A DNA stretch of 64,000 nt from a virus, in the IMG/VR virus record IMGVR_UViG_3300045988_143931, positions 1 through 64,000 of that record; one strand, 5' to 3'. Numbering within the stretch: the first letter of the stretch is position 1; every line of letters starts with the position of its first letter. This document shows positions 13,516 to 60,128 of this stretch, piece by piece. The notes under the pieces are model-generated. The model was not told the origin of the DNA. It saw only the letters and a program-made list of their open reading frames with translations, and did not search any database. The position numbers and the translations under genes are program-made.

Positions 13516-14685
13516 TTATAAACTATTCACAAATGCTAATAAATCTTCCTCGTCATTATCAGTTTCGTTTTCTTCTTCGCTCTTAAATAATTCTTGAGCC
13601 TTTAAATACTCATCATATGGTTTATGTAATGACCTTGAATATCCTGATAGAGTTGCCAATCTAAAAGCATCTGCATCTGTAACCTCTTGCCAAAAGATAT
13701 TTTCATCTTCACTATCTTTATATTCTCTTTCTTTCTCGTTGATTTCTGAAATAGTGCTAATGATATCTGTCTTTAAATCATTGATCTTCTCTTCTGTTAA
13801 TAGAATCTGCACATAACAATCATGTATCTCAAACTTGTCTCTAACTTCGTCTGGTAAACAATCAATGTTATTATTTAATACCATTTCATCAATATATTTT
13901 TCAGTATCATCCTCATATCCAAATGCTTTAAGCCACATTTTTGCTGTATTTACAAGATTTTCACCAATCGCATTTCTTTCAATATATCTATCTTTTTTCT
14001 TACCGTTCTTTTGTTCAATAGTAACAGTTACATATTTTAAGAAATTCCATTCGCATACAATATCCTCTAACGGAATATCTAATGCTTGTCTAATTCCTTC
14101 AGCGTAAATAACCAACTGCCCACATTCAGCGTCAATTTTTGCTCCCTGATATCGTGTAGAAGTTTTCCAATCTACAATATGCACACGCTTTTTTTCATTG
14201 CCATCTTCATCTGTATATGGCTCAATATAGAGCATATCTATATATCCTTGCATATAAATGTCATCAGATATTTTAATTGTAATAAAATGTTCAACTTTAT
14301 GTGGGAAATTAATCAGATTATGATTTTTAAAGAAATGTCTAATGCAATTTTCATATTTATTTGCTATTGCATCGTTTTTATCAGAATCACTACGATTATA
14401 TTTAAGTTCTGCACAGTTCATTGTGAACAAACTATCTTCATATAAATCTGGCATGTCTTCATACTTAATTTTATCAGTGTATAGCTGCTCAATAATATCA
14501 TGTACATTTCCACCTGATACACAATAAATACTGTTTGTTCTGTCTTCTTTTTTATGTAGAATATATTTCAAAAAATATTCCCATTTATCTTGCTTGTAAC
14601 AATGATACCTTGACCATGACCATAATGTGTCAACACCAAATTTCTTACAAATTTCTGTTAATTCTTTACTTGTTTTTCTTGCCAA
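13516..14685 (-). CDS. PD-(D/E)XK family nuclease (Cas4/RecB-like)
   Basis: GYIDMLY...VHIVDWKTS matches the D...(D/E)xK core. Confidence 0.65.
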   Translation of the reverse strand: MARKTSKELTEICKKFGVDTLWSWSRYHCYKQDKWEYFLKYILHKKEDRTNSIYCVSGGNVHDIIEQLYTDKIKYEDMPDLYEDSLFTMNCAELKYNRSDSDKNDAIANKYENCIRHFFKNHNLINFPHKVEHFITIKISDDIYMQGYIDMLYIEPYTDEDGNEKKRVHIVDWKTSTRYQGAKIDAECGQLVIYAEGIRQALDIPLEDIVCEWNFLKYVTVTIEQKNGKKKDRYIERNAIGENLVNTAKMWLKAFGYEDDTEKYIDEMVLNNNIDCLPDEVRDKFEIHDCYVQILLTEEKINDLKTDIISTISEINEKEREYKDSEDENIFWQEVTDADAFRLATLSGYSRSLHKPYDEYLKAQELFKSEEENETDNDEEDLLAFVNSL

Positions 14686-22847: not shown

Positions 22848-23702
22848 TTACTCTTCACCAATAAATACCAATCTATCAATATATTCTCTACCTTCACCCT
22901 TGAAAATAGGAATATCTGTATCAATAATCCACTCATTTTCTGATTTAGAAAAATCTCTTAAATGTGCAGTTGCCATGACACCATCAGATTCAATAATAAT
23001 CTTATTTCTTACACAGCAACTTCCACGCTTTTGATAAGTCGGCAAATCATTCCAGTTGATGCCTTTCTGAGTCATAAGCATATCCTGAATATCATTACAT
23101 GACTTATTCTGTAATTCCTTGTGTGAGAAATTGGCTTGACCTACCATCTGAATTGAATTACGAGAAGCATCAAGTTGTCGCCAATATACGAGATTTGTTA
23201 CTTCTTCTTTTGGAATATTGAAACAACGAGCATCGAACATTGCACCTTTATCAACTGCTAAAGATAAAATATGTTCATAGTTTTCATGAGTATTATCCAT
23301 ACATTCGTAAGTATATGTACAATAATCTCCTACATTATTAGCAAAAGCCCTATTAAATGCCATAGTAGCCATACTTGCTGCAATACTACAAATCTTCTGA
23401 ACTTCATAATCAAACCATGCTGAAGATGTAAGTTTCTTATAATCAACAAGAATAAGTGTAATCTCATCTGACTGCGTGTAACCAAGAACACAGCCCTGAA
23501 TATTCTCGCATAAGTATCTCATTGTTTCCTGCATTGATTTAATCAAAACTTCATCAAAAGGCTTCTGAAATCCTCTTGTGAATGTGTGGAACGCTTTTCC
23601 ATCAATTCTGATAGCAACTGGACACCTTCTCATCAGTTTTGTCTTTGGAATCTGCTCATAAAATGTCTTCATCCTAACGCCTAAATCATCATGTACTGGC
23701 AT
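22848..23702 (-). CDS. tRNA-His guanylyltransferase (Thg1)-like 3'-5' nucleotidyltransferase
   Basis: IRIDGKAFHTFTRGF.KPFD and SDEITLIL match Thg1 N-terminal motifs. Confidence 0.85.
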   Translation of the reverse strand: MPVHDDLGVRMKTFYEQIPKTKLMRRCPVAIRIDGKAFHTFTRGFQKPFDEVLIKSMQETMRYLCENIQGCVLGYTQSDEITLILVDYKKLTSSAWFDYEVQKICSIAASMATMAFNRAFANNVGDYCTYTYECMDNTHENYEHILSLAVDKGAMFDARCFNIPKEEVTNLVYWRQLDASRNSIQMVGQANFSHKELQNKSCNDIQDMLMTQKGINWNDLPTYQKRGSCCVRNKIIIESDGVMATAHLRDFSKSENEWIIDTDIPIFKGEGREYIDRLVFIGEE

Positions 23703-26330: not shown

Positions 26331-27422
26331 TCAGTTCACACCATTATGTGTTTCGCCATCTGAGTAATAAATGTTCCAACCCTTGAATAGCTCAATTAAC
26401 TTATCATTATCCCAATCATATTCATTACAATGTGTAATGGCGATTGATTTTTTATCTCCAAAGTTTCCTGCATCATTAGAGCATCTACTATATAATTCTC
26501 CTAAATCAAGTGTTCCATATCTCAATGTATCCTGGAATGGATTTGGTACATTTGTTTTATCAAACATATACTCATTGATAAATCTCTTATTACATTCAGA
26601 TGGGAATTTACCAGCACCATGTCTCGTTAAATAAGTACGAGATACATAACAAGTTTCAATACTTATCTCATCATTCCATTCAACATTTTCAATTATTCTC
26701 TTGGGATTTTCTATACCTGTATTAGACGGTGTTAGATGTGGAAAATATTCTGTGTTGTTCTGATCAAGCAATAAACCTTGTGCAGCTTCAAATACAATAT
26801 TGTCAAATTGATTTAAGAAATAATTATCTGATATAGCCAATGAGTGATTATTCATAAAATCCCAATCATCTAAAAAGTGTTCAAATATACCATTATCAAG
26901 GAATATTTTTGACCATTCATCTGTTAATATAATATTCTCTCTTTCAAATTGTTCTAAGTAGTATTCCCTGATATGATTATCTACATCAGTTATGCCAGCT
27001 TTATATCTTTTGATAGTTTCAAAAATTCCCAAGCCACAACTACCATGTTTATTTTTTCCACGATTTTCTTCTATAATCTGATTTGCCATCATATCAAAAG
27101 GTGTAGTCAACATACAATTTTGATTGATATAAACATTCGTAATATATCCTAATTTCATCAATTCATCATATTCCTGCTTAAAGATAATTGGATTAACAAT
27201 AAAATCCTCAGATAAATATGTACTTGCATGATTGAATGTTCCAGATCCAAAATGATGAAAGACATGTCTGATTCCATCAGGCGTTGTTACGGTATGTCCT
27301 CTCTGAGCACCACCATTTGAACAAACAACAATACTATTAGGTTTCTGTGAGAAATAATCTGTCATTAATCCCTTTCCACAATCTCCAAAGTTAGCACCTA
27401 TTACAATCTTAATGTCTTTCAT
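26331..27422 (-). CDS. purZ: Adenylosuccinate synthetase-family enzyme; PurZ candidate (N6-succino-2-amino-2'-deoxyadenylate synthase)
   Basis: PurA motifs FGDCGKGL (P-loop), NGGAQRGHT and GSCGLGI. Short 363-aa form in a phage context. The family call is firm; the PurZ specificity is inferred. Confidence 0.6.
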   Translation of the reverse strand: MKDIKIVIGANFGDCGKGLMTDYFSQKPNSIVVCSNGGAQRGHTVTTPDGIRHVFHHFGSGTFNHASTYLSEDFIVNPIIFKQEYDELMKLGYITNVYINQNCMLTTPFDMMANQIIEENRGKNKHGSCGLGIFETIKRYKAGITDVDNHIREYYLEQFERENIILTDEWSKIFLDNGIFEHFLDDWDFMNNHSLAISDNYFLNQFDNIVFEAAQGLLLDQNNTEYFPHLTPSNTGIENPKRIIENVEWNDEISIETCYVSRTYLTRHGAGKFPSECNKRFINEYMFDKTNVPNPFQDTLRYGTLDLGELYSRCSNDAGNFGDKKSIAITHCNEYDWDNDKLIELFKGWNIYYSDGETHNGVN

Positions 27423-36372: not shown

Positions 36373-37257
36373 TTACCTCGCTCTATCACATTCGTTAAAA
36401 TCTAAAAGCATCTTATATTTATATTCTCCAAATCTTTCTTTCCAACGCTGCTTTGCTTTATCAGTATCCCAACTAAAAGGCATCATATGGTAATTGATGA
36501 GGAAACATGTATCTAAAACAACATCAGAATTAACATGATACATAGCTGTCATGTATTGATATGAACCGTAACAATGATGCTGATAATAATGAGCTATCCC
36601 ATCTTCATCAAATGTTTGTGTACTCAATTTGCCTAAATCGTGATACAAAGCACCTATTCTGAATCTTGCAGGATAAGCATATTTTGTAGAAAATAATCTT
36701 GATGCATATTTGCAGTGTTCAAATAAATTCATTGTATGATGCGGACTTTTCTGATCAAATCCTCTCATATCTGGAATATCATTTGGTTCGTAATCATTTA
36801 ATAAATTATGAATAATAATCTCATCGAATCCTTCCTCGTAGAACGGAATCTGAAATTTTCTAATCTGCTTATCCAACACAAAGTCAGGTACAGGATGTTC
36901 TCTATGTAGATTATCTTTTTTACACTGTTCAAATGGCTTTGGAATAATTACACATACTTTTCTGACATTTAAGCCATTTACTTTCATCATAATTGCTCTG
37001 CGAGATTTCATAGTCAGATTAGTCGCATCTGCGATTACATTCTTTTTATTCTCCAAATTCTTACGGATTCTATCATGAAAAATTTTGAATACTTCTTTAT
37101 TATGTTCTTGATTTTCGTAATTACCAGTCAATTCCTCACGAATTGCATCGGATGATACGATTATTGTATTTGGATTCTCATTGGCAATCTGAGTGGTAAT
37201 GGTTGACTTGCCACTACCACTCAAACCACACATAATATACAATGTAGGTTTATTCAT
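36373..37257 (-). CDS. P-loop polynucleotide kinase-like domain fused to an HD phosphohydrolase (RNA end-healing candidate)
   Basis: Walker A CGLSGSGKST with an AAA_33/PNK-like layout. C-terminal HD motif ALYHDLGK...YYQHH. Overlaps the RNA ligase gene by 8 nt. Confidence 0.7.
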   Translation of the reverse strand: MNKPTLYIMCGLSGSGKSTITTQIANENPNTIIVSSDAIREELTGNYENQEHNKEVFKIFHDRIRKNLENKKNVIADATNLTMKSRRAIMMKVNGLNVRKVCVIIPKPFEQCKKDNLHREHPVPDFVLDKQIRKFQIPFYEEGFDEIIIHNLLNDYEPNDIPDMRGFDQKSPHHTMNLFEHCKYASRLFSTKYAYPARFRIGALYHDLGKLSTQTFDEDGIAHYYQHHCYGSYQYMTAMYHVNSDVVLDTCFLINYHMMPFSWDTDKAKQRWKERFGEYKYKMLLDFNECDRAR

Positions 37258-38569
37258 TTAAAGTCTCCTCGAATAACTCTTCAGCTTCTTCCATATCAGG
37301 CACATCAGATGTATCTTTAGCAATCCCCTCAATTACCTTAAATTCAAACACCTTATCCTTATAAGCTGTGAATGTTGCTCTGTTATCAATACGAACAACT
37401 ACACCTTCAGCAACATGTGTCTTACCGATTTCATCTGCTGGCATACCATCAAGATATTTATTTACTCTTTCTTTCAAATCTTCTGGTGTAGTAAAAATAA
37501 ACTTCTCTAAATCAGGTACATGCTTAACGCCCAACTTGTCACACCATACTTCTACAGTTTCCCAAGGCACTTCAACAACTGTTCCGTCTGCTGTTGTCAT
37601 TGTCATTCGATATACATACATCTCATTTTCGCCTTGGTCACAGCCATATGAGAATGTTGTGGTGTCACCAAATTTCTTAGTAAATTCTTTTTCCTTAACT
37701 CCCTTATTAGATACTGAACCCATAATTGGTGTTGTTTCATTTACATATCCGACAATTTCATAGAAAATTTCAGCACCTTCAGGAAGCTTGTCTTTTAATA
37801 AATCGTGGTACTTCTTTCTAAATCTATTATCAGAATAATATCCATCATTCTTTGTCATATCCTTTAACACAACCCTTCTGCTACCAGATACAACAGAAAC
37901 TTCTCTTATAACCTTTGGCTTCATATGTAAAAACTTTCTCAGCTTACTATTCTTCTTTGTAACCTTAACAGTCTTCATAGTACGAGCCGATGTTCCGTGG
38001 AGCTTACGAGTAATATAAATTGTATCTCCTGGCTTAAATGCTGATATATTATATGCAAGCTGTGCAGTATCTTTATGCTCCTCAAAAAATGGATATGATA
38101 CTGTTTCTTTCTGAAACTTATTTTTCTTCTTTAAATTATTTCCATTACCTCTTGAACGATTTTTTCCTCTTGGAATATATTTTTGACAAATCTCATGACC
38201 ACCAAGAACTGTAATCTGATCGCCATCTTTTAATTTTGAAATATCTGTATACTTAGAAAGTGTTTCAACAGGTAATACAAGTCCTTCTGACTTCTCACCT
38301 CTAAGTCTAATAGCGGTTACATTTCTCTTCTCAGCATCCATATAACCACCAATGTTGTTTCCATTCTCATCTTTCTTTCTGACAAGGTTATTATCTGCTG
38401 CATACTCAAGTGATAACTGACCGTCAGATGGGAAGAATACTACTTTCTGTCCTTCCTGATAATTCAAATCTACAATTACATTCTGTCCAAATACCTCTAC
38501 ACACTGTAACCTATCAGCGTTACTATGTTTTCTTAATCCTTTTAATGTTGTGATATAAGCACAATACAT
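37250..38569 (-). CDS. ATP-dependent RNA ligase with an N-terminal OB/tRNA-binding-like domain (Rnl5/DRB0094-like)
   Basis: N-terminal HSNADRL...RLRGEKSEGLVLP (OB). Motif I TRKLHGTS (KxHG), EGVVVRI, YKDKVFEFK. Confidence 0.75.
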   Translation of the reverse strand: MYCAYITTLKGLRKHSNADRLQCVEVFGQNVIVDLNYQEGQKVVFFPSDGQLSLEYAADNNLVRKKDENGNNIGGYMDAEKRNVTAIRLRGEKSEGLVLPVETLSKYTDISKLKDGDQITVLGGHEICQKYIPRGKNRSRGNGNNLKKKNKFQKETVSYPFFEEHKDTAQLAYNISAFKPGDTIYITRKLHGTSARTMKTVKVTKKNSKLRKFLHMKPKVIREVSVVSGSRRVVLKDMTKNDGYYSDNRFRKKYHDLLKDKLPEGAEIFYEIVGYVNETTPIMGSVSNKGVKEKEFTKKFGDTTTFSYGCDQGENEMYVYRMTMTTADGTVVEVPWETVEVWCDKLGVKHVPDLEKFIFTTPEDLKERVNKYLDGMPADEIGKTHVAEGVVVRIDNRATFTAYKDKVFEFKVIEGIAKDTSDVPDMEEAEELFEETLNE

Positions 38570-47942: not shown

Positions 47943-50000
47943 TTAAAACTTAATCTTCATTACACGCTCTGTTGCACCCTTAACCTTAATAACTAAATCT
48001 GCTCTCTTTGTCATAGAGAATCCAATTCCTGAAAGCTGATCATCAGTATCCTCTACATGACACTTAGCACCTAATGCTTCAAATACTCTCTTGTGCTTCA
48101 TTAAATCATTGTCAAGGAACTCAAGATAGAATCCATTAGGACTTTCGTTATTCACACAATCCTTCAGGAAGAAGAATAAATGTCTATGACCAATTCCATC
48201 CTGCTCGTCAAAATAGTTTGGACTGTAACTAATTACTGATATAGGAACAAACTGATTTGTATTTACACCCCAAATTTCACGACTTGAAATAGATGAATTT
48301 CCTGCTAACTTCTCCTTAATTGAGAAGTTTCCATTCTCATCAAGTGTTACTTCTGCAACCTGAACCTTTTCATCAGTTCTCATTGACTTATCGTAATCAA
48401 ACTTGTAAATTTCTCCATTAAATTCAATCTCTGCTCTAAATCCATGCCTTACGCTTCCTGAATACTGATGTACAAAAAACTTATAAACACCTGGTTTCAT
48501 TCTTGACAAGTCTTCCCAAGTAATATTCTCTACTGCAACCTTTCCATCTGGATGAATAATATCAACGTCCAACTGACCACCCATTCTTGAAACACTTGGC
48601 TTTCTACAATTACTAAAGAAAATTTCATTCTTATCTGGCTCAATACAATGTGCATCAAGGTCGTAATTATCATGACCATCTTCATTCCACTGAATAGAAA
48701 ATCTGAGTACACCATCGACATTGCCGCCAGCAGCTTTTACATTCTGCTTCATATCAGAGTCAGTAATGTTTCCTGAATAAGCCCAAGATAATCCATTATT
48801 CCATTTGAACATTGTCTTAGCGTCTGGATTAACAGGTGCAATCATAGAAACAAAGTTCTTCTCATGTTTATTTTCTACAAAAGCTTCAATCTCCTTTGCA
48901 GTTGGAAGTACCTTATAAATGAAATCCTGTGCTGAAATCTCTTCAACTTTAGAAAACTTCTTAGGACTTACAGCAATATCCTTTTCCATCTGTCCAAAAA
49001 TATCATCTGCACCAACCATTCTTCTTGCAGCACTTTTATTTGAGAACAGTACATTATTTACAGTAATATCATTCAGATTAGCAAATCTTCTCTGCAATGA
49101 ATCCATATATCCAAGTTCTGTAATGGTCTTCTTTGCATCCTCAAGCATTTTCTTTGTAAAAATAGCCTTTGGTCTTTTATAGTTGCTCGGTGCTGTAATC
49201 TGTTCATACTTCTTAACTGCTGTGTCAAGATCCATATCCTCACTTACATTGATAAGAAGTGTTCCAATAGAATGATTTCTAATTCTACCGATAGCCATAC
49301 CTGCTGTTACTGATTTTTCCCAAGCATATAAGTCCTTTTCAGTATCAGAAGTCAGCTTATCATATTCCTTCTTATACTTCTTGAACTCTGTGAGTACGCC
49401 TTTCCACTCTTCGCCCTTGTAAAGTGTATTTGAATTGATAAGTTCAAAAATTGTATCAAGTGCTTCCATAGTAATCTCATCAAGAGAACGCTTAAATACA
49501 TTTCTTGTGTCTCTGAACTGTCCCTTAACTTCCTCATTTGAACAACTACTTCTATTTACGAACTTGCTTGGAAGCTCTAAGAATAAATGATCCCACTGAT
49601 GAGACTTTCCATTAATTTCCTCAAAGTTAAAATCTGTACCAATCTTAGGGAACTTAGTTGTATAAATATCTGTAACTGTATGCGTCTTTACAAAAGCGTC
49701 AAGTGCATCACATACTGGCTGATATGTTGTATCACCAAGATTCAGTTCCCAAATCGTATGAATCTGGTTGTCCTTGATAGTGACAGCAGAACCAATATTC
49801 TTGATAAACTGTCTACAACAACTGCAATCATGCTCTCTGTGCTCTCTGAAAATCTCATTTGTACCAGCAGGGAAGCTATCAAGATATGTATTCCATAATT
49901 CATCCTTATCTACATTTACCTCAAATAAATGTGTAGCCTCTTTCTGCATTTCATCGAAGTGCTTCTGTAAAGCCTTCTTAAACATCATAAATCCATCCAT
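47943..50000 (-). CDS. Large hypothetical protein (685 aa), possible TerD-like beta-sandwich near the C-terminus
   Basis: ORF track. SD AGAGG. The segment LRFSIQWNEDG..YDLDAHCIEPDKNEIFFSN...GGQLDVDI resembles a TerD-type fold (recalled from memory only). Confidence 0.6.
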   Translation of the reverse strand: MDGFMMFKKALQKHFDEMQKEATHLFEVNVDKDELWNTYLDSFPAGTNEIFREHREHDCSCCRQFIKNIGSAVTIKDNQIHTIWELNLGDTTYQPVCDALDAFVKTHTVTDIYTTKFPKIGTDFNFEEINGKSHQWDHLFLELPSKFVNRSSCSNEEVKGQFRDTRNVFKRSLDEITMEALDTIFELINSNTLYKGEEWKGVLTEFKKYKKEYDKLTSDTEKDLYAWEKSVTAGMAIGRIRNHSIGTLLINVSEDMDLDTAVKKYEQITAPSNYKRPKAIFTKKMLEDAKKTITELGYMDSLQRRFANLNDITVNNVLFSNKSAARRMVGADDIFGQMEKDIAVSPKKFSKVEEISAQDFIYKVLPTAKEIEAFVENKHEKNFVSMIAPVNPDAKTMFKWNNGLSWAYSGNITDSDMKQNVKAAGGNVDGVLRFSIQWNEDGHDNYDLDAHCIEPDKNEIFFSNCRKPSVSRMGGQLDVDIIHPDGKVAVENITWEDLSRMKPGVYKFFVHQYSGSVRHGFRAEIEFNGEIYKFDYDKSMRTDEKVQVAEVTLDENGNFSIKEKLAGNSSISSREIWGVNTNQFVPISVISYSPNYFDEQDGIGHRHLFFFLKDCVNNESPNGFYLEFLDNDLMKHKRVFEALGAKCHVEDTDDQLSGIGFSMTKRADLVIKVKGATERVMKIKF

Positions 50001-50103
50001 ATTTTGTACCTCTTCTTTCTTATATTTATTTTTGTTAATTGTTTCTACTGTTACATTCTCTCTTCTAAAAAATTAAAAGGCTATTGAATTACCTTTGAAT
50101 AAG

Positions 50104-50127
50104 TCGGTAGGCTTTAACACCTACCAA
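50104..50127 (-). terminator. Candidate operon-end hairpin
   Basis: 8-bp stem (one G-U pair) TCGGTAGG/CCTACCAA with an 8-nt loop, just after the 29-aa ORF. The U-tract is weak. Confidence 0.35.
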
Positions 50128-50135
50128 CCCTTACA

Positions 50136-50225
50136 TTATTTTTTCTTACGCTTTCCTACAATAAAACCTGCTCCAAAGCATATACCAAGACAGATTAAGA
50201 AAACTCCAATGTTTAATACAATCAT
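50136..50225 (-). CDS. 29-aa transmembrane peptide at the operon end
   Basis: MIVLNIGVFLICLGICFGAGFIVGKRKKK. The ATG lies 2 nt after the upstream stop. Confidence 0.4.
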   Translation of the reverse strand: MIVLNIGVFLICLGICFGAGFIVGKRKKK

Positions 50226-50227
50226 AT

Positions 50228-51784
50228 TTATTCCTCAATAATCTTGAATGATATGTCAGTTCTTCTGTTCTTCTGCATATTAGTTTCTGAATCGTTAGGT
50301 GCAACTGGCTTTGTGCCTCCATTTCCTACTGTAACAATTCTATCTGCACTAATACCATTGAGAACAAAATACTGCTTAACTGTTTCTGCTCTATTTTTCG
50401 AAAGGTTAATACCATCTTCATCATCATTATCAGAAGCTATATTTCCTTCAATCTGAATAATCGAGCCATCCAAGACTTTAGCAATTTCAATAAATTCATC
50501 TAATTTAGAAGTTGCATCGCCTGAATCTAAGAATTTTGCTGTATTAGCAATAAAGTCTACAGAAGTTGACTTTGTGAGTAATGCCTTTGCATTTATTACA
50601 TCATTCTGATTAGATTCATTAACAACAGGCTTTGAATCTGTAGATGTATAACCATTTGAATCATACTTAGATGATAACTTCTGAATATACGTGTCATCGA
50701 AAAGAGTATCTATAAGACCTGTATTAACATTCTCTCCCATTGATGTCCAGACTTTACACATATCATTATAAATAGTCTTTGCTGTACCATTAAAAAGCTT
50801 AAGATTGTCTGCGTATGTAGTAAGTTTAGCAGATGCGCAATTATCCTTGACATCCTGATTAGAAGCTGTTGAGAACATTGGCATAACTGATTTGATTGTT
50901 GTCATATCCTTTTCATATAAATCTGCTGCCTGTAAAGCTCCATCAATAAAAGCTGTTACAACATCAGGATATTTCTTTGCAAAATCATTATTAAATAAAA
51001 TACCGTCCATAATTAAGCTAGAAGAACTTGCTGTACTAAATAATATATGAGCATCTGACATATTCTTTGCCTGAGTTAAGTAAGGCTCCCAAGTGGCAGC
51101 TACATCAATCTGTCCAGCGAAAAATGCCTTTGCAGCATCATCAGGTGTTGAGAACATAATTAAATTATTGATAATCTTCTGCTTATCAGCATCAGATAAA
51201 TCCGACTGATTTACAAACCATACTACAAGAGAGTGAGCTTCTGAAAATTCAGGAACACCAATTTTAGCATTAACCAAATCCGTTACAGATGTAATACCTG
51301 ACTTTGCTATGATTCCATCTCCACCATTTGAGAAATTAGTTATATATGGCATAATTACATCTATTCCTGCCGTCTTAAACTTTTCTGAAAGAAACGCTGT
51401 TCTATTAATTGTATATCCTGCTGCATCTAGCTTTTTACTGATAATCGCATTACTTGACTGTGTTGCATCATTTATAATACTTATGTTTACTTTAATTCCT
51501 AACTTATCATAAATCGAATTTTCTTTAGTAGAAAGACCGCCATTAGCGTCTATGATCGGCTTCCACCCGATCCATTCGTCAAGTGATAAATTAATTGTCT
51601 TATCATCTGACTTATCTGTATTAATAACATTTCCATCTTCATCTGTTGTTATGTTGAAGTGTTTACTTGTGACAAATCCCGACTTTAATCCAGCGAAGAC
51701 ACCACCACCAATTAATGCAATAACTAAAACCACAATTAAAATTTTTGAGGCTTTAGTAAGTCTAAATCTTTTTGTATTACTCAT
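50228..51784 (-). CDS. TM-anchored ABC substrate-binding domain fused to an OmpA/MotB-like peptidoglycan-binding domain
   Basis: N-terminal TM segment ILIVVLVIALIGGGVFAGL, a periplasmic-binding-like middle, and C-terminal NRAETVKQYF...GGTKPVAPN...NRRTDISF (OmpA_C pattern). Confidence 0.65.
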   Translation of the reverse strand: MSNTKRFRLTKASKILIVVLVIALIGGGVFAGLKSGFVTSKHFNITTDEDGNVINTDKSDDKTINLSLDEWIGWKPIIDANGGLSTKENSIYDKLGIKVNISIINDATQSSNAIISKKLDAAGYTINRTAFLSEKFKTAGIDVIMPYITNFSNGGDGIIAKSGITSVTDLVNAKIGVPEFSEAHSLVVWFVNQSDLSDADKQKIINNLIMFSTPDDAAKAFFAGQIDVAATWEPYLTQAKNMSDAHILFSTASSSSLIMDGILFNNDFAKKYPDVVTAFIDGALQAADLYEKDMTTIKSVMPMFSTASNQDVKDNCASAKLTTYADNLKLFNGTAKTIYNDMCKVWTSMGENVNTGLIDTLFDDTYIQKLSSKYDSNGYTSTDSKPVVNESNQNDVINAKALLTKSTSVDFIANTAKFLDSGDATSKLDEFIEIAKVLDGSIIQIEGNIASDNDDEDGINLSKNRAETVKQYFVLNGISADRIVTVGNGGTKPVAPNDSETNMQKNRRTDISFKIIEE

Positions 51785-51795
51785 ACTAATTCTCC

Positions 51796-52533
51796 TTACT
51801 TGTTATATTTTCTCTTTAAGCTGTCTAAATAATCGTTACTGCTATTTTTCTTAGCTTCAACTTCTGCTCTTGCAAGTTTAGTTGACATTTTGTTGTTATA
51901 TACCACCTTAGATCCTTCAACAATGGCATCCAAATCTCTGTTTTTATCTCTGACAGAATCGAGAAGTTTATCGGTTGTAGTTACATTCTTTAACTCGTCC
52001 ATATCATCATAGACTTCCTGTAACTGTTTCTTCACTTTCATATTCTCCACAACTTCCTTACTTTCTCTCTTTAATTTACGGAGATTCTTTTCACACATTT
52101 CCTGTGCTTCTTTTGCGGTATTCGCTGCATCTTCATATGCTTTTATTAACTCAGAATATCTCTTAATATCAGCCATAATCTCTTCTCTCTCGTCAGCCTT
52201 TAACTGTGCCAATTCAATTTTATTAGCTTTCACAAGAGACTCACATTCAGATTCGACCTTCTCAAGCTTCGATTTAAGATTCTTCATATCTTTCTGCGCA
52301 TTGCTTAATTTACCAGCAGCTACCTTGTAAGCGTTGTCTGCCTTGTTATAAGCATCCTGAGCTTGATCAATTTTTTCACCATAAATGGCTTCTGCTCCTT
52401 CTGGTGTTGTTGCCATATCTTTGATAAATAATCTTGTAATTCCCGAAAATAATGTTCTTGCTTCAGGAAACAGAATAAAAATCAAAATGACAACCGCAAT
52501 TACTAAGATAATAATTAGCTTTCCAAGTTCCAT
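51796..52533 (-). CDS. TM-anchored PspA/IM30-like coiled-coil protein
   Basis: TM segment, then FSGITRLFIKDMATTPEGAEAIYGEKIDQAQ... and long heptad-like helices resembling PspA/LiaH. Confidence 0.55.
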   Translation of the reverse strand: MELGKLIIILVIAVVILIFILFPEARTLFSGITRLFIKDMATTPEGAEAIYGEKIDQAQDAYNKADNAYKVAAGKLSNAQKDMKNLKSKLEKVESECESLVKANKIELAQLKADEREEIMADIKRYSELIKAYEDAANTAKEAQEMCEKNLRKLKRESKEVVENMKVKKQLQEVYDDMDELKNVTTTDKLLDSVRDKNRDLDAIVEGSKVVYNNKMSTKLARAEVEAKKNSSNDYLDSLKRKYNK

Positions 52534-53064
52534 TTACTCATTTCCTCCTTCAATAAATTTGATAAGTCCAGAAATTCTATCAACCTCTGCATTGATATTA
52601 TTCTCTGAAGTCTTCATCTCTGACTGTTGATCTGCTATCTCTTTCTCAAGTCTAGCAATTTCTTTTTTATGATTTTCAATTTCAGCCTGCTTATCAATGA
52701 CTATATTCTCTCCTTCATTTAATATTTTTGACAAAACACTATTAAGCACATCAACACGCTGTTCGCCATCAAGTGTTACATCAGTAACCGTTAAGCCAAA
52801 CACTCCAAGAGTCGCTAAAACTGAACCTCTCTTTGTCTCTGTAACCATTTCTTTTGGAAGAGAATTAATCAGTTCTTCAATCTTGAAAATTGACTTTGAC
52901 TTATCTGATAACTCGTTTTGAGTATAAATATCCTCGATAAGTGTATCTGTATGCACCTCATCAAGCTCAACTAAAACCTCTGTGTCTTCTACAGAATAAT
53001 CAGTGTCTACATCATAATTCTCTTCTTCTGGAACTTTCTCTACGAAAAAGTCTCTAAATCCCAT
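52534..53064 (-). CDS. Acidic N-terminus plus coiled-coil protein
   Basis: ORF track. SD AAGGAGG. Abuts the next gene's ATG. Confidence 0.6.
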   Translation of the reverse strand: MGFRDFFVEKVPEEENYDVDTDYSVEDTEVLVELDEVHTDTLIEDIYTQNELSDKSKSIFKIEELINSLPKEMVTETKRGSVLATLGVFGLTVTDVTLDGEQRVDVLNSVLSKILNEGENIVIDKQAEIENHKKEIARLEKEIADQQSEMKTSENNINAEVDRISGLIKFIEGGNE

Positions 53065-53081
53065 TTTGTTTCCTCCTTAAA

Positions 53082-53693
53082 TTAAAATTCTATAATCACG
53101 TCACACATTTTTTGTGCTTCTCCTTTGCTATGTGTAACCATAATTATTGTGTTATTTGTTTCTTTATGCTGCTTGATAATCAAATCTTGCATTTTTTGCC
53201 TAGTTTCAATATCTAATGCAGATAATGGCTCATCCATAAGAATTATTTCTGGATTCATAAATAATGTTCTTGCTAAAGCAAGTCTTTGTCTCATACCACC
53301 TGATAGTTGTTTTGGATATTTATTTTCATTACCTTCCAATCCAACAATAGAAATCATTTCTTTTGCTCTATCAATATCACACTTATTTATTCTCCCTTTG
53401 ACTTTCTGTGCTATCAGAATATTGTCTAAACACTTTAACCAATCAAATGAAGTGTAATTTTGATGCATCATGTAAATATTATTTTTACTTGCCTTAGTAA
53501 CTAATTCTCCATTTACAACCGCATTCCCACTTAACGGTTTTATCAAACCTGCAATTGTTCTTAGTAAAGTTGTTTTTCCACAACCAGATTCACCTAATAT
53601 CCCATAAATTTTAGAATCAAATTGATAATTAAAATTCTTCAATAAAGGCTTGTCTCTGCTATAGCCTGTATATAACTCATTCAATTCAATCAT
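53082..53693 (-). CDS. ABC transporter ATP-binding protein (NitT/TauT-like)
   Basis: Walker A GESGCGKTT, signature LSGGMRQR, Walker B ILMDEPLSALD. Confidence 0.9.
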   Translation of the reverse strand: MIELNELYTGYSRDKPLLKNFNYQFDSKIYGILGESGCGKTTLLRTIAGLIKPLSGNAVVNGELVTKASKNNIYMMHQNYTSFDWLKCLDNILIAQKVKGRINKCDIDRAKEMISIVGLEGNENKYPKQLSGGMRQRLALARTLFMNPEIILMDEPLSALDIETRQKMQDLIIKQHKETNNTIIMVTHSKGEAQKMCDVIIEF

Positions 53694-54432
53694 TTATATA
53701 CCTCCATTTAAAAATATGTTTTACTAACCATTTCGCAGCAAAATCAAATATAACACTTATAATCATGATTACGATAATAGCCATAAAAACTAAATCTGTT
53801 CTTCCTCTTGAAGAAGATTGCTGAATTATATAGCCCAATCCGTATTTTGCATTAATTGTTTCTGCTACTGCTATATATGTAAACCCAATTCCATACATCA
53901 TGATGAAACTATTTAATACTCCTGGTAAAGACGCAGGTATTTGTATTCTCCAAATGGTCTGTATCTTATCCATTCCGATTGTTAGTCCTGTATCAATCAA
54001 ATCACTACTGACTTCCTCTAAACATAAAATGACTGATGGCATCATATATACAAAAGTTGCGATAAATAAAAATACTATTTTCATTATTTCATCTATGCCA
54101 AACCACATAATCAACAGAGGATAAAAAGCTGTAACAGGAATGTATCTCATAACACTGATAATTGGACTTAATATATCTTTTGCTACTTTTGAGTTATAAA
54201 CTAAAATTGCAATAGGAAAGGCAATAAATCCTGATATAAAAGTTGCTATGGTTATTCTCAAAAACGAATATTTGATAGCCATTATCAATTGTCCAGTTTT
54301 TAACATTGCAATTAAATCTGTAAATACTATCTTTGGATCTGGAACAAATAATTGATTTACATGTTGCGATGCAATATTCCAAATTATGAGAATGGCTACA
54401 AGTAATGCTATTCTTTTTAAAATAATTTTCAT
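53686..54432 (-). CDS. ABC transporter permease
   Basis: Multi-TM protein with the binding-protein-dependent permease layout (…AETINAKYGLGYII). Overlaps the ATPase gene by 8 nt. Confidence 0.85.
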   Translation of the reverse strand: MKIILKRIALLVAILIIWNIASQHVNQLFVPDPKIVFTDLIAMLKTGQLIMAIKYSFLRITIATFISGFIAFPIAILVYNSKVAKDILSPIISVMRYIPVTAFYPLLIMWFGIDEIMKIVFLFIATFVYMMPSVILCLEEVSSDLIDTGLTIGMDKIQTIWRIQIPASLPGVLNSFIMMYGIGFTYIAVAETINAKYGLGYIIQQSSSRGRTDLVFMAIIVIMIISVIFDFAAKWLVKHIFKWRYIND

Positions 54433-54531
54433 GCCCTCACCTCTTTCTATATCTATATTCTCTTTTTAATTTGGGAATTTTTATTGAGCTGAATCGCTCA
54501 GAATTTTTTCAAAGGAAACGAAGTTTTCTTG

Positions 54532-56157: not shown

Positions 56158-56230
56158 TGTGCCATATGGGAGTTGAACCCATGACACCTCGATTAAAAGT
56201 CGAGTACTCTACCTACTGAGCTAATGGTAC
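56158..56230 (-). tRNA. tRNA-Lys (anticodon UUU)
   Basis: Manual cloverleaf: GTACCAT/ATGGCAC acceptor (A3:C70 mismatch), anticodon stem CTCGA/TCGAG, loop CTTTTAA, T arm ATGGG-TTCAACT-CCCAT, discriminator A. No encoded CCA. Confidence 0.85.
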
Positions 56231-56234
56231 GAAA

Positions 56235-56307
56235 CTAGACTGGTGGGATTCGAACCCACGAATGACAGAATCAAAATCTGTTGTGTTGACCACTTCACCA
56301 CAGCCCA
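56235..56307 (-). tRNA. tRNA-Gln (anticodon UUG)
   Basis: Manual cloverleaf: U1-A72 and G73 (Gln-like identity), anticodon stem ACAGA/TCTGT, loop TTTTGAT, T arm GTGGG-TTCGAAT-CCCAC. Confidence 0.85.
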
Positions 56308-56348: not shown

Positions 56349-57218
56349 TTACTTATCAGTTACAACTGTATTATTTGTTCCTGAAATTGTAACCCAACCA
56401 AACTTATTTCTTGCTTCTGCTTCCTTCATTCTAATAAGCTCATCGGTAATAGAAGAACTTAACTTATTGTTAGCTTCTGCCTGTGCTTGAGCTTCTATGA
56501 GCTGTGCATCGGCTTTAGCCTGCGCTTCTGCCTTAGTTACTTCTGCATCTGCTTTTGCCTTATTAATAGCTGTTTGATTATTAATTTCCTGTGTTTCCGC
56601 AGCCTGCTGTGCGGTAATCTTAGCATTAATCGCTTCCATCGTATTTTCATCTACAGTAATATTAATAAGAGATACATTTGTAATATTAATTCCATATGTA
56701 GAAAATCTTTTATTAAGATAATCTGTTAATGCTGCATTAACATTTGCTCTTTCAGAACCGAGAATATCAGATACCTTATACTGCGCCACGACTTCTTTTG
56801 TCCAAGAAATGATATTAGGCTTAATAAAACTATCTCTTACTTCCTTACCAGATTGTCCTCTAAACCTTGTAAATAAATCAGCGACCTTTTCAGTGTTGTA
56901 CTGATATGTAAATGTTAAATCTAATGTCATAGCCTTACCTTCAGATGAACTAGCTGAAAAACTATCATCATCTTTAGAGTCTCCGTCCTTACCTGCTGTA
57001 AGATATGACTGTTCTAAGCTTACAGAATATAATGTAGTCTTTACTGTGGGTGACTTGAAATGCCATCCCTGTGTTAATACATCACCTTTGATTCCACCCG
57101 ACATACTGTACTGGATTGCAACATATCCCGCTGGAACACGAACTGTTGACTTAAATAAAATTATTGCTAAAAATAGTATCACTATGGCAGATACAACGCC
57201 ACCTACAACTTTCTTCAT
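56349..57218 (-). CDS. SPFH/Band 7 (prohibitin/HflK-like) membrane protein
   Basis: N-terminal TM segment, an SPFH core (VPAGYVAIQYS...GWHFKSP) and an Ala/Gln-rich coiled-coil tail. Confidence 0.8.
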   Translation of the reverse strand: MKKVVGGVVSAIVILFLAIILFKSTVRVPAGYVAIQYSMSGGIKGDVLTQGWHFKSPTVKTTLYSVSLEQSYLTAGKDGDSKDDDSFSASSSEGKAMTLDLTFTYQYNTEKVADLFTRFRGQSGKEVRDSFIKPNIISWTKEVVAQYKVSDILGSERANVNAALTDYLNKRFSTYGINITNVSLINITVDENTMEAINAKITAQQAAETQEINNQTAINKAKADAEVTKAEAQAKADAQLIEAQAQAEANNKLSSSITDELIRMKEAEARNKFGWVTISGTNNTVVTDK

Positions 57219-59471: not shown

Positions 59472-60128
59472 TTAATCAAATAATAATGATATGTATTCGT
59501 ATGACCTTAGAATCTTCATACAATCTAATAATTGTTGTTCTGTTATATGTAATAATTCCATAATTTCATCTCGATTGTATTCTTGAGAAAATAACTTTGC
59601 TACACCTCTAACTCTTTTAGGTAAATTGCTAAGATATAGTTCAACCTTATCTGTATATTCCTCTGCAATGAGAATATCTTCTATGTTTATCTTAGATGAT
59701 AGTGTCTCTTTTAAATTTTGCGTCTCATCATTATCCATATCAAATGAAACACTATCAATTCTTATAGGTCTTTTCTTGCCATTGATTTCTTCGTATATAA
59801 TCTTTCCATTACCGTCTCTGGCAAGATTGTTTCGGCAACCTGTATACTTATTATCACGAAACCAACTATAAGATGATCTTGAAATATTACCCGTTAGGTA
59901 TGTTTCAAATTTTGCCTTACTTTTAGTGTCATATGTAACTAAAGATTCTATTAATACCTCTATAGCATCATCAAGCAATTCGTCTTCTTCGTAATTATCA
60001 ACCTTACCTTTCCATATTTTATAGCAAATATTTTTTAACTTCTTCATTTCATTTGTCATATATAAATCAAGTATTTCTGACAACTTAGGATTGTTTTTAA
60101 TAACCAACATCATTTCTTTATTAATCAT
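59472..60128 (-). CDS. Sigma-70 family (ECF-like) phage sigma factor candidate
   Basis: Region 2-like DDAIEVLIESLVTYD...FETYLTGNISRSSYSWFRD. Region 4-like LPKRVRGVAKLF...RDEIMELLHITEQQL. Confidence 0.55.
   Translation of the reverse strand: MINKEMMLVIKNNPKLSEILDLYMTNEMKKLKNICYKIWKGKVDNYEEDELLDDAIEVLIESLVTYDTKSKAKFETYLTGNISRSSYSWFRDNKYTGCRNNLARDGNGKIIYEEINGKKRPIRIDSVSFDMDNDETQNLKETLSSKINIEDILIAEEYTDKVELYLSNLPKRVRGVAKLFSQEYNRDEIMELLHITEQQLLDCMKILRSYEYISLLFD

Follow-up and report, generated by a model that had tools for sequence, protein, structure and literature searches.

What does a large virus gain from carrying an importer whose genes are interleaved with those of a membrane-stress protein and a wall-binding protein? 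The question is raised by six genes at positions 50136-54432 of the IMG/VR record IMGVR_UViG_3300045988_143931, of which positions 1-64,000 were analysed (the whole 64,000-nt stretch is hereafter termed the window). A first-pass annotation, made from the sequence alone, had read them as a phage-borne ATP-binding cassette (ABC) importer operon into which membrane-stress and wall-anchoring modules were inserted, and had suggested a composite envelope machine. With a probability of about 0.9, the block can be regarded as the phage-borne version, devoid of an AAA+ ATPase and permuted in gene order, of a five-component envelope module also found in the chromosomes of Clostridia. The six open reading frames (ORFs) were found at the coordinates, on the strand and in the order first proposed, and are given here in the order of transcription:

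53686-54432, minus strand: permease, 248 aa, with a BPD_transp_1 domain
53082-53693, minus strand: ABC ATPase, or nucleotide-binding domain (NBD) protein, 203 aa, with an ABC_tran domain; its gene overlaps the permease gene by 8 nt
52534-53064, minus strand: acidic partner protein, 176 aa, from an orphan family
51796-52533, minus strand: PspA-like protein anchored by a transmembrane (TM) helix, hereafter TM-PspA, 245 aa, assigned to PF04012 via orthologues, profile and model
50228-51784, minus strand: substrate-binding protein (SBP) with NMT1 and OmpA domains, hereafter SBP-OmpA, 518 aa
50136-50225, minus strand: single-TM peptide, 29 aa, taken from the ORF list

These co-directional ORFs are nearly gapless, their successive junctions being an 8-nt overlap followed by gaps of 17, 0, 11, and 2 nt. 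Considering this overlap and the gaps of 0-17 nt, they constitute a tightly coupled operon.

Taken individually, the TM-PspA of the window obtains 25.2 bits against PspA_IM30 (PF04012), under the cutoff of 33.9 bits, over positions 13-217 of the 220 profile positions, and its membership in this family therefore rests on transitive and profile evidence. An orthologue from a faecal phage (L002), which matches the window protein at 3e-35, scores 42.4 bits and thus exceeds the same cutoff. An exhaustive search produced a compact family which, clustered at 50% identity, comprises 202 representatives; almost all of them measure 240-270 aa, and PF04012 was matched individually by 44 of 92 family representatives, the best at 6.6e-13. 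The top matches of the family profile in the PDB are Vipp1/PspA (3e-6 to 1.5e-5, residues 45-204 being aligned to 26-186); this deeper profile supersedes a shallower one, with which Vipp1 was reached at E-values of only 0.3-0.5. The AlphaFold2 (AF2) model displays a TM helix followed by a hairpin of helices 44-102 and 106-230, i.e., the long α1-α2/3 hairpin of the family, with a predicted local distance difference test (pLDDT) score of 85-95 over residues 50-160. When this model was submitted to Foldseek, the top match was Vipp1 (6zvr), together with E. coli PspA (4whe, TM-score 0.76, root-mean-square deviation 1.9 Å) and another Vipp1 structure (9eom, TM-score 0.63/0.70). Homology to PspA/IM30, and hence to the ESCRT-III superfamily, is established through the orthologues, the family profile and the structure model. 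The N-terminal amphipathic helix α0 of PspA was not found in TM-PspA; its N-terminus has instead a hydrophobic TM helix at residues 5-22, after which come a short helix (23-40) and a TPEGA motif peculiar to this family. Such a replacement is a variant architecture compatible with membership in the PspA/ESCRT-III superfamily. In the family, the N-terminal flank of the TM helix is very short and uncharged and the C-terminal flank is positively charged, so an N-out/C-in orientation is predicted, with the PspA domain in the cytoplasm.

The opposite orientation is predicted for SBP-OmpA, which consists of a positively charged N-terminus, one TM helix (N-in), a binding domain and an OmpA-like domain, with low-complexity linkers. 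Both domains exceed their Pfam cutoffs, with 34.3 bits for NMT1 (cutoff 20.5; 2.9e-8) and 52.4 bits for OmpA (cutoff 27.2; 6.8e-14), and the core residues expected from PF00691 are readable in the window protein (LSKNRAETV and NRRTDISF). The two domain calls that had been named at first pass as possible points of refutation, PspA and OmpA, are thus both sustained, the former through orthologue, profile and fold evidence. Sequence matches in the PDB comprise OmpA-like domains and, weakly, SsuA/TauA/NrtA-type binding proteins; the match to SsuA_fam (78 bits, 6e-22) is below its cutoff. In 31 phage and cellular homologues, the most conserved stretches are loops of the SBP core (N.GL.T, ND...SS, GYT.NR, N.S.GGDGII, VP..SE, TW.PYL.QA) and OmpA residues, the S..RA and TD..F columns being at least 90% conserved, while the linkers are variable. 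Such conservation is in keeping with a functional ligand site and a functional wall anchor, both predicted. Judged from these features, SBP-OmpA is a predicted extracytoplasmic binding protein of the NMT1/SsuA class, TM-anchored and ending in an OmpA-like peptidoglycan-binding domain.

The permease and ATPase calls of the first-pass annotation also hold, and the three ATPase motifs that it had quoted are present. The permease matches BPD_transp_1 with 79.8 bits (cutoff 26.4; 2.8e-22), an EAA-like coupling loop, EEVSSDLIDTGLTIGMDKIQTIWRIQIPASLP, is readable in its translation, and it shares 47% identity with gp243 of Bacillus phage G. By sequence, it is a putative type I ABC importer permease resembling TauC, SsuC and SaoP, its closest named NCBIfam families (TauC at 8e-31), all of which are matched far under their equivalog cutoffs. 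The ATPase, 53% identical to gp245 of phage G, matches ABC_tran with 99.1 bits (4e-28). It is minimal, with 203 aa and no C-terminal regulatory domain, and all of its motifs are intact: Walker A (GESGCGKTT), Q-loop (MHQN), signature (LSGGMRQR), Walker B/D-loop (ILMDEPLSALD) and H-loop (VTHS). A BPD_transp_1 permease with an EAA loop, a motif-complete NBD and an NMT1/SsuA-class binding protein together define a type I importer of the NitT/TauT group. Equivalog-level identity with TauABC, SsuABC, NrtABC or SaoABC was not found; since the scores are far below the cutoffs (TauC 107/342, SsuC 84/347, SaoA 156/360, and SsuA_fam 78/163.5 bits), the substrate is not assignable, and the sulfonates, nitrate and HMP proposed at first pass are candidates.

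The acidic partner has a conserved basic/aromatic motif at its N-terminus, then a disordered acidic stretch and a helical core that is likewise conserved (IY..N.L.D.SKSIFKVEELI.SLPKEM..TK, with an invariant R103), and a coiled coil at its C-terminus. Its single-sequence AF2 model has a pLDDT of 59.7 and is confident for helix 100-173 only, and Pfam, PDB sequence-profile and Foldseek searches returned no relatives beyond generic coiled coils. Given these negative searches and an hhalign probability of 5%, the possibility that it is a diverged second PspA was rejected. Homologues exist in phage G (gp246), in other phages and in cellular operons, where they were detected with a family hidden Markov model (HMM; 4e-16 in L093 and 3e-9 in L090). 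It can thus be described, on sequence grounds, as a putative orphan cytoplasmic family specific to this system. The 29-aa peptide, which starts 2 nt past the SBP-OmpA stop codon, has a single TM segment and a KRKKK tail. With tblastn, it was retrieved in closer phage relatives only, directly downstream of SBP-OmpA and with 57-100% identity, and it is a called gene in L005.

How constant the association of these components is can be judged from their distribution. When IMG/VR was scanned with the alignment of the PspA family, 117 relatives were confirmed, and the 75 loci with enough flanking sequence were analysed. Of these viral loci, 61 have all five main genes in the order of the window, with identities of the PspA protein as low as about 30%, and this conservation of the interleaved order, for which the first-pass annotation had called for a survey, strengthens its idea of a composite envelope machine. 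TM-PspA is accompanied by SBP-OmpA in every locus (75/75) and the acidic partner is found in 74 of the 75, whereas the permease and/or NBD gene is missing in 14. Only the NBD is absent from 11 loci, while three (L063, L068, and L069) have no permease, two of the latter (L068 and L069) being also without NBD. Considering that SBP-OmpA and TM-PspA are constant and that the permease and NBD are variable, the core of the system is the TM-PspA/SBP-OmpA pair and not the transporter. The importer looks like the more dispensable part of the module, and the picture of membrane-stress and wall modules inserted into an importer is probably inverted. In the clade lacking the NBD (L002 1469-5528; L075-L085; L089), which includes the faecal phage mentioned above and a contig from a metagenome-assembled genome (MAG) of Peptococcaceae, no NBD gene is located within 7 kb. 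The permease of this clade keeps a perfect EAA loop, which implies an NBD encoded elsewhere. In the loci without NBD or permease, the NBD may act in trans, possibly provided by a homologous system of the host, or the transporter may be dispensable.

These observations bear directly on the simplest alternative, namely that the cassette is a plain auxiliary metabolic importer that provides a scarce nutrient or precursor, with PspA and the acidic protein as co-transcribed housekeeping helpers or as aids to the insertion or stability of the transporter. The three importer parts are indeed present and motif-complete, the SBP core loops are conserved, and SBP genes have been duplicated or swapped. 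Second SBP-OmpA copies were encountered in phage G, several gut phages and one cellular locus, such multiplicity being typical, by analogy, of importers served by several binding proteins. The neighbourhood of some relatives moreover suggests metabolism. NAD-salvage genes, for an isochorismatase/PncA-like protein, a phosphoribosyltransferase, NAPRTase and NAD synthase, stand directly beside the cassette in a Clostridium sp. 12(A) prophage (L004 2881-6394), and a PnuC-type NMN transporter and a NadR-like protein are encoded beside that of a marine phage (L096 10833-13364). An importer as such would nevertheless be served by a soluble or lipoprotein SBP, which leaves the double anchoring in membrane and peptidoglycan unexplained; the linkage to PspA and the acidic partner persists in cellular operons, and the transporter genes are lost from 14 of 75 loci in which SBP-OmpA and PspA stay together. 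This alternative is therefore considered unlikely, although it is the best placed of the rivals.

The module extends far beyond close relatives of the window. All five main proteins of the cassette, together with the 29-aa peptide, are encoded with 100% protein identity on a viral contig of IMG/VR (L006). A homologue of SBP-OmpA was found in Lak megaphages, in an uncultured phage of 735 kb and in a phage scaffold from human faeces, and two were found in Bacillus phage G (gp249 and gp250). In phage G, gp243, gp245, gp246, gp247, and gp249/gp250 match the five window proteins with 31-53% identity and in the same order. Relatives also occur in gut Lachnospiraceae phages and in a marine phage. All of these were reached at the protein level only, a megablast search of the 4.6-kb block against annotated phages having returned no match. 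In Lak-B5, SBP-OmpA, permease and NBD are clustered in a rearranged order, with an acidic coiled-coil ORF and a TM/coiled-coil ORF immediately upstream. With the 92-sequence profile, run against a small local database, the 355-aa TM protein gave a weak match (2.4e-7) and the 229-aa protein none; BLASTP and hhalign against small family alignments retrieved nothing for these middle ORFs, and Pfam only coiled-coil noise. Lak megaphages thus probably carry the same module.

Two further features of the Lak-B5 locus were recorded. Between SBP-OmpA and permease, and again downstream, there are three to four paralogous ORFs, each about 150 aa long and of unknown function (L003 9501-10864, 14537-14986), and a second fragment resembling an ABC ATPase, at 13826-14131, points to a split gene or to the recoding of a stop codon.

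Counterparts of the cassette were also identified in bacterial chromosomes. In L090 (representative P0378), which adjoins rpsF-ssb-rpsR and has dipeptidase, rubredoxin and flavoprotein genes beside it, the order is a 177-aa protein, TM-PspA, NMT1+OmpA, permease, ABC ATPase and AAA+ ATPase. Compared with the window, identity is 45% for the SBP (6e-150), 39% for the permease, 36% for the NBD and 23% for PspA (2e-13), the acidic partner being matched at 3e-9 with the family HMM. A Clostridiales MAG (L093) has the order of L090 without the AAA+ gene, among der, plsY, gpsA, pta, and ackA, and the shared proteins are homologous. A third locus (L095), among sporulation genes, harbors two SBP-OmpA genes, with a VWA protein and TelA encoded nearby. 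Patatin-like phospholipase genes stand directly upstream of two unrelated cellular operons (L090 5073-5931; L093 5835-6671), and the patatin, TelA and VWA neighbours hint at a link to membrane lipids or stress. In a neighbour-joining (NJ) tree of SBP-OmpA, which carries no support values, the cellular sequences group together in a single clade that is nested between clades of phage sequences, with interleaving at deep branches. No AAA+ gene was found in or beside the window operon, nor in the phage contexts of L004, L005 and L096. A pattern-based locus search with a very diverse alignment (A5) offered no usable conserved stretch.

The first-pass annotation had allowed that the block might be a recently captured host operon of identical organisation. 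Homologous Clostridia operons do exist, as the three loci show, although their gene order is permuted and their identity is only 23-45%; together with the interleaving in the NJ tree, this argues for an old exchange and not a recent capture. The same data speak to a neutral passenger, i.e., a Clostridia envelope operon picked up by a large phage with no phage-specific role. The existence of homologous operons in the host class is what such a scenario would lead one to expect, but the phage-type order is kept by highly diverged phages whose hosts are of Bacillus type, Lachnospiraceae or marine, neither reading frames nor catalytic motifs are disrupted, and divergence from the cellular versions is deep, while neutral cargo would not persist this widely. 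A passenger is accordingly the least credible of the explanations considered, and a very improbable one.

That the cassette is carried by a phage, as first proposed, is supported by the identical cassette of the viral contig L006, by its occurrence in phage G and others, and by the gene content of the window. Located nearly all on one strand, the genes of the window encode an integrase, two tRNAs, Pol III alpha, RecD2, an NAD-dependent ligase and methylases, together with a sub-threshold sigma-70-family protein, an SPFH protein, RNA-repair-type enzymes and a replication block. In the isolate Clostridium sp. 12(A), the cassette lies amid phage replication genes within a 3.5-Mb contig, which indicates a large prophage, and close versions are present in the isolate Acetatifactor muris DSM 23669 and in Lachnospiraceae and Blautia MAGs. 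These genomes therefore identify the window phage as a large temperate one with Lachnospiraceae as hosts. Identical or 96-99% identical PspA-like proteins (P0121, P0127, and P0142; L005) were also noted on contigs of 497-774 kb, including a 637-kb NCBI assembly contig; these contigs are either a very large phage genome or integrated copies in host contigs.

A temperate lifestyle makes superinfection exclusion, or envelope defence at large, worth weighing: a wall-anchored surface protein and a membrane-sealing PspA would act against rival phages, bacteriocins or wall-active compounds. Besides the integrase of the window and the cassettes in the Clostridium sp. 12(A) and Acetatifactor muris genomes, this idea can draw on the variable accessory region, with its toxin, SPFH and integrase genes, and on the behaviour of SBP-OmpA. 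In two relatives (L007 and L008, 7754-9352), permease, NBD and acidic protein are 100% and PspA 98% identical to those of the window, compared with only 63% for SBP-OmpA, which looks like an allelic replacement of this gene alone and recalls the pattern of conflict-facing surface proteins. The divergence is nevertheless mostly confined to the linkers, which are nearly unrelated, the binding core remaining about 75-85% identical. At the level of the generic domain, the OmpA part resembles that of ZorB, but no cassette-specific protein matches a PADLOC model. In PADLOC-DB 2.0, the matches are limited to generic ABC-ATPase (mad3, AriA) and OmpA-domain (ZorB) models, with nothing for the permease and coiled-coil noise only for the PspA-like and acidic proteins, and identity with a catalogued defence system was rejected on this basis. 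Moreover, the module is also present in Clostridia chromosomes among housekeeping and sporulation genes, the relevant passages of the phage G paper do not mention the cassette, and no link to exclusion was found. An exclusion role thus appears rather improbable, somewhat more so than a plain importer.

Considering the above, the function that we favor is envelope maintenance, in which a wall-membrane tether and a PspA scaffold would be coupled to solute import; we assign to this functional reading, as distinct from the identity of the block, a probability of 0.4-0.5. With its N-terminus inside, SBP-OmpA would expose its SBP and OmpA domains outside the membrane, where the latter would grip peptidoglycan. 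TM-PspA, oppositely oriented and with its TM helix in place of α0, could form a polymerising scaffold of the ESCRT-III type on the cytoplasmic face. Together, the two would make up a wall-membrane-scaffold tether able to stabilise or reseal the cytoplasmic membrane, thereby preserving the proton-motive force. Where present, the type I ABC importer would dock the tethered SBP and import a small solute of the NitT/TauT class, and through this import the scaffold might be linked to ATP turnover and to the supply of a solute or a signal from it, with the acidic cytoplasmic partner as the probable adaptor or regulator. The benefit for the phage would be a host envelope that stays intact and energised while a long infection lasts, or in the lysogenic state. 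Functional linkage of the components is supported by the gene overlap and small gaps, by the order conserved in 61 of 75 loci, and by the homologues in phage G and in two cellular contexts. A genuine binding site is supported by the SBP-core loops, which exceed all other parts of the fusion in conservation, and by the second SBP-OmpA copies in some phages and one cellular locus. The theme of membrane maintenance is supported by the SPFH/Band-7 genes that recur in the vicinity, by TelA and patatin beside the cellular versions, and by a link between membrane remodelling and solute transport put forward, for cellular operons, in passages of PMC11237479.

Several points weigh against this reading. 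Contact between TM-PspA and SBP-OmpA is deduced from co-occurrence alone, and the complex, its substrate, the timing of its expression and its phenotype are all hypothetical. The TM-PspA of the window is sub-threshold on its own, and the E-values that it obtained in Foldseek (0.05-0.3) are weak, as helical hairpins would lead one to expect. The loss of the NBD, or of permease and NBD, may mean that transporter and PspA pair act independently, although it can equally be read as the use of host components in trans. For the two middle proteins of Lak phages, homology is either weak or escaped detection. Cellular relatives sometimes carry an AAA+ ATPase that the phage lacks, and the phage version may therefore work differently. 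Finally, the scan of genome contigs was made with short motifs of the phage clade and says little about the frequency of the cellular version.

A bolder extension of the tether model can be envisaged, namely an ESCRT-III machine independent of Vps4, in which an SBP-gated ABC transporter would use ATP, via the acidic adaptor, to assemble, disassemble or position the TM-PspA polymer at wall-tethered sites. We consider it a long shot. If true, huge phages would remodel or reseal the host membrane, e.g., at entry or lysis lesions, or build infection-specific membrane structures, and there would be a new way to power or control ESCRT-III-type polymers as well as a new class of phage devices for host takeover.

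Three further features, two of them flanking the operon and the third outside it, are of interest for its expression and context:

54454-54463, minus strand: AGAGAATATA box, exact match, 22 nt upstream of the permease ATG
50101-50130, minus strand: stem-loop with a 12-bp stem, at the operon end
56349-57218, minus strand: SPFH/Band-7 membrane protein, with a Band_7 domain, outside the operon

The box at the operon head and the closing hairpin, both pointed out at first pass, are real: the former is an exact motif match, separated from the permease start by a strong ribosome-binding site (AGAGGTGAGGG), and the latter has a 12-bp stem of -18.2 kcal/mol with a z-score of -3.9 relative to shuffled sequences. 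With at most one mismatch, AGAGAATATA has 54 copies in the window compared with 19.6 +/- 4.7 expected (2.8-fold), and 52 of the 54 lie on the coding strand; the sites include 313, 13719, 20675, 20950, 22880, 23728, 25029, 33953, 34553, 52702, 54454, and 56337. An exact copy is located within the acidic-protein gene, 169 nt ahead of the PspA start, and distances to start codons are uneven (11-169 nt). The box ahead of the permease is kept in the nearest relatives only, farther relatives displaying sigma-A-type promoters, e.g., TTGACA-17-TAATAT in L058. Judged by its enrichment and placement, AGAGAATATA is a genuine, lineage-specific promoter-like or regulatory motif, hence a putative promoter. 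A canonical sigma-70 promoter was rejected as its identity, the sigma-70 consensus scan across the operon giving no enrichment (24 sites compared with 23.9 expected). A sub-threshold gene of the sigma-70 family, 5 kb upstream at 59472-60128, could encode the factor that reads the box. The sigma-A-type promoters before the cassette in some relatives are consistent with early or lysogenic expression by the host RNA polymerase. The stem-loop at 50101-50130 was not called by a consensus terminator scan because its U-tract is weak, and it is the probable terminator of the operon.

The SPFH protein, about 2 kb upstream of the operon, matches Band_7 at 6e-25 and is HflK-like below the cutoff. A homologue lies at most 7 kb from the cassette in 11 of 80 related viral loci, and directly upstream of the permease in L025-L027, so that the SPFH protein is a possible loose accessory of the module. 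On the other side, the cassette is adjoined by a gene for a 685-aa DUF8224 protein (phrog_1735, function unknown; window 47943-50000), which also stands beside the cassette, on either side, in 39 of the 80 loci, distant ones included (L066, L070-L073, and L096); this adjacency may reflect linkage, or merely a conserved phage gene.

Elsewhere in the window, an RNA-repair-like set (22848-23702, 36373-38569, 56158-56307) comprises a Thg1-type tRNA-His guanylyltransferase, an RNA ligase with an adjacent AAA_33/zeta-like kinase, and tRNA-Lys(UUU) and tRNA-Gln(UUG), i.e., the type of kit used by phages against anticodon nucleases. A short (363-aa), divergent adenylosuccinate-synthase-like gene at 26331-27422 scores 99 bits against PurA (cutoff 402) and 43 bits against PurZ (cutoff 300); the PurZ reading is unsupported at this score, and a role in 2-aminoadenine DNA synthesis is neither supported nor refuted by these scores.

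Membrane remodelling by proteins of the PspA/Vipp1/ESCRT-III group is ancient, and it is still an open question what regulates and energises those of bacteria. In the present module, the genes tie a PspA that is permanently anchored in the membrane to a binding protein anchored in the wall and, in most cases, to an ABC transporter, in an arrangement kept by very different large phages and by Clostridia. Should the components assemble into a single complex, it would reveal how membrane repair is tied to the state of the envelope or to solute supply, and how big phages keep their host intact and energised in long infection or lysogeny. The module is common in abundant human-gut phages, and it is tractable, as phage G is available in culture and the cassette is present in the genomes of two isolates, Clostridium sp. 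12(A) and Acetatifactor muris DSM 23669. In PHROGs, the PspA-like and SBP-OmpA families are labelled "unknown function", and the analysis gives names to families 33389, 25518 and 6743, which currently bear this label.

With regard to known systems, a search for literature on phage-encoded PspA or ESCRT-III retrieved nothing relevant, and the cassette is not mentioned in the main texts of a jumbo-phage comparative genomics paper and of the phage G multi-omics paper. The Jug gut jumbo phages carry and transcribe a pspA-like gene next to terD (PMC12880540). As described there, they resemble the window phage in being huge gut phages with a PspA-like stress gene, and differ from it by the TerD neighbourhood and by the lack of ABC or OmpA parts in the main text; the comparison is by description only.

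The resemblance to SsuABC, TauABC and NrtABCD importers lies in the type I permease with an EAA loop, the cognate NBD and the NMT1/SsuA-class binding protein. Unlike in these importers, the NBD has no C-terminal domain, the SBP is TM-anchored and fused to OmpA instead of being a lipoprotein or soluble, and equivalog scores are far below cutoff. As in Pal of the Tol-Pal system, the MotB/PomB stators and ZorB of Zorya, a C-terminal OmpA-like domain would tether an inner-membrane complex to the wall; in contrast with these complexes, there is no ion channel partner of the MotA, TolQ or ZorA type, and the anchor is fused to a solute-binding domain and accompanied by ABC and PspA components.

Classical Psp/Lia systems are represented by PspFABC in E. 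coli and by LiaIH and PspA-YdjGHI, the latter with the SPFH protein YdjI, in B. subtilis. A PspA/IM30 effector at the cytoplasmic face of a stressed membrane and recurring SPFH/Band-7 neighbours are features that the cassette would share with them. Unlike in these systems, PspA is permanently TM-anchored and not recruited via α0 or membrane partners, and the cassette is devoid of PspB/C, PspF, LiaI and a two-component regulator, having instead an ABC importer and a peptidoglycan anchor.

The closest likeness is to bacterial operons described briefly in PMC11237479 (mSystems 2024; section 18, Text S2.2, Table S3), in which PspA or a TM-anchored Snf7-like protein and an AAA+ ATPase can also be encoded alongside an ABC ATPase plus a permease and a periplasmic binding protein with OmpA (PBP+OmpA); Band-7/PspA gene neighbourhoods are described in the same paper. 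The passages on these operons mention neither phages nor experiments. The first-pass remark that the system is not a described one thus stands for the phage version, which appears undescribed, and not for the cellular association. The parts list is the same, i.e., a TM-anchored protein of the ESCRT-III superfamily, an ABC ATPase, a permease and a signal/TM-anchored solute-binding domain to which OmpA is fused. The example given in these passages, OGG56892.1 from Candidatus Handelsmanbacteria, is likened to the phage cassette by this list only, the direct homologues of the five phage proteins being those of the Clostridia operons. Unlike the operons of that paper, as far as they are described in those sections, the cassette has no AAA+ ATPase and its soluble partner is an orphan acidic coiled coil and not a second PspA; it begins with permease and NBD, adds a 29-aa peptide in close relatives, and resides in a phage genome.

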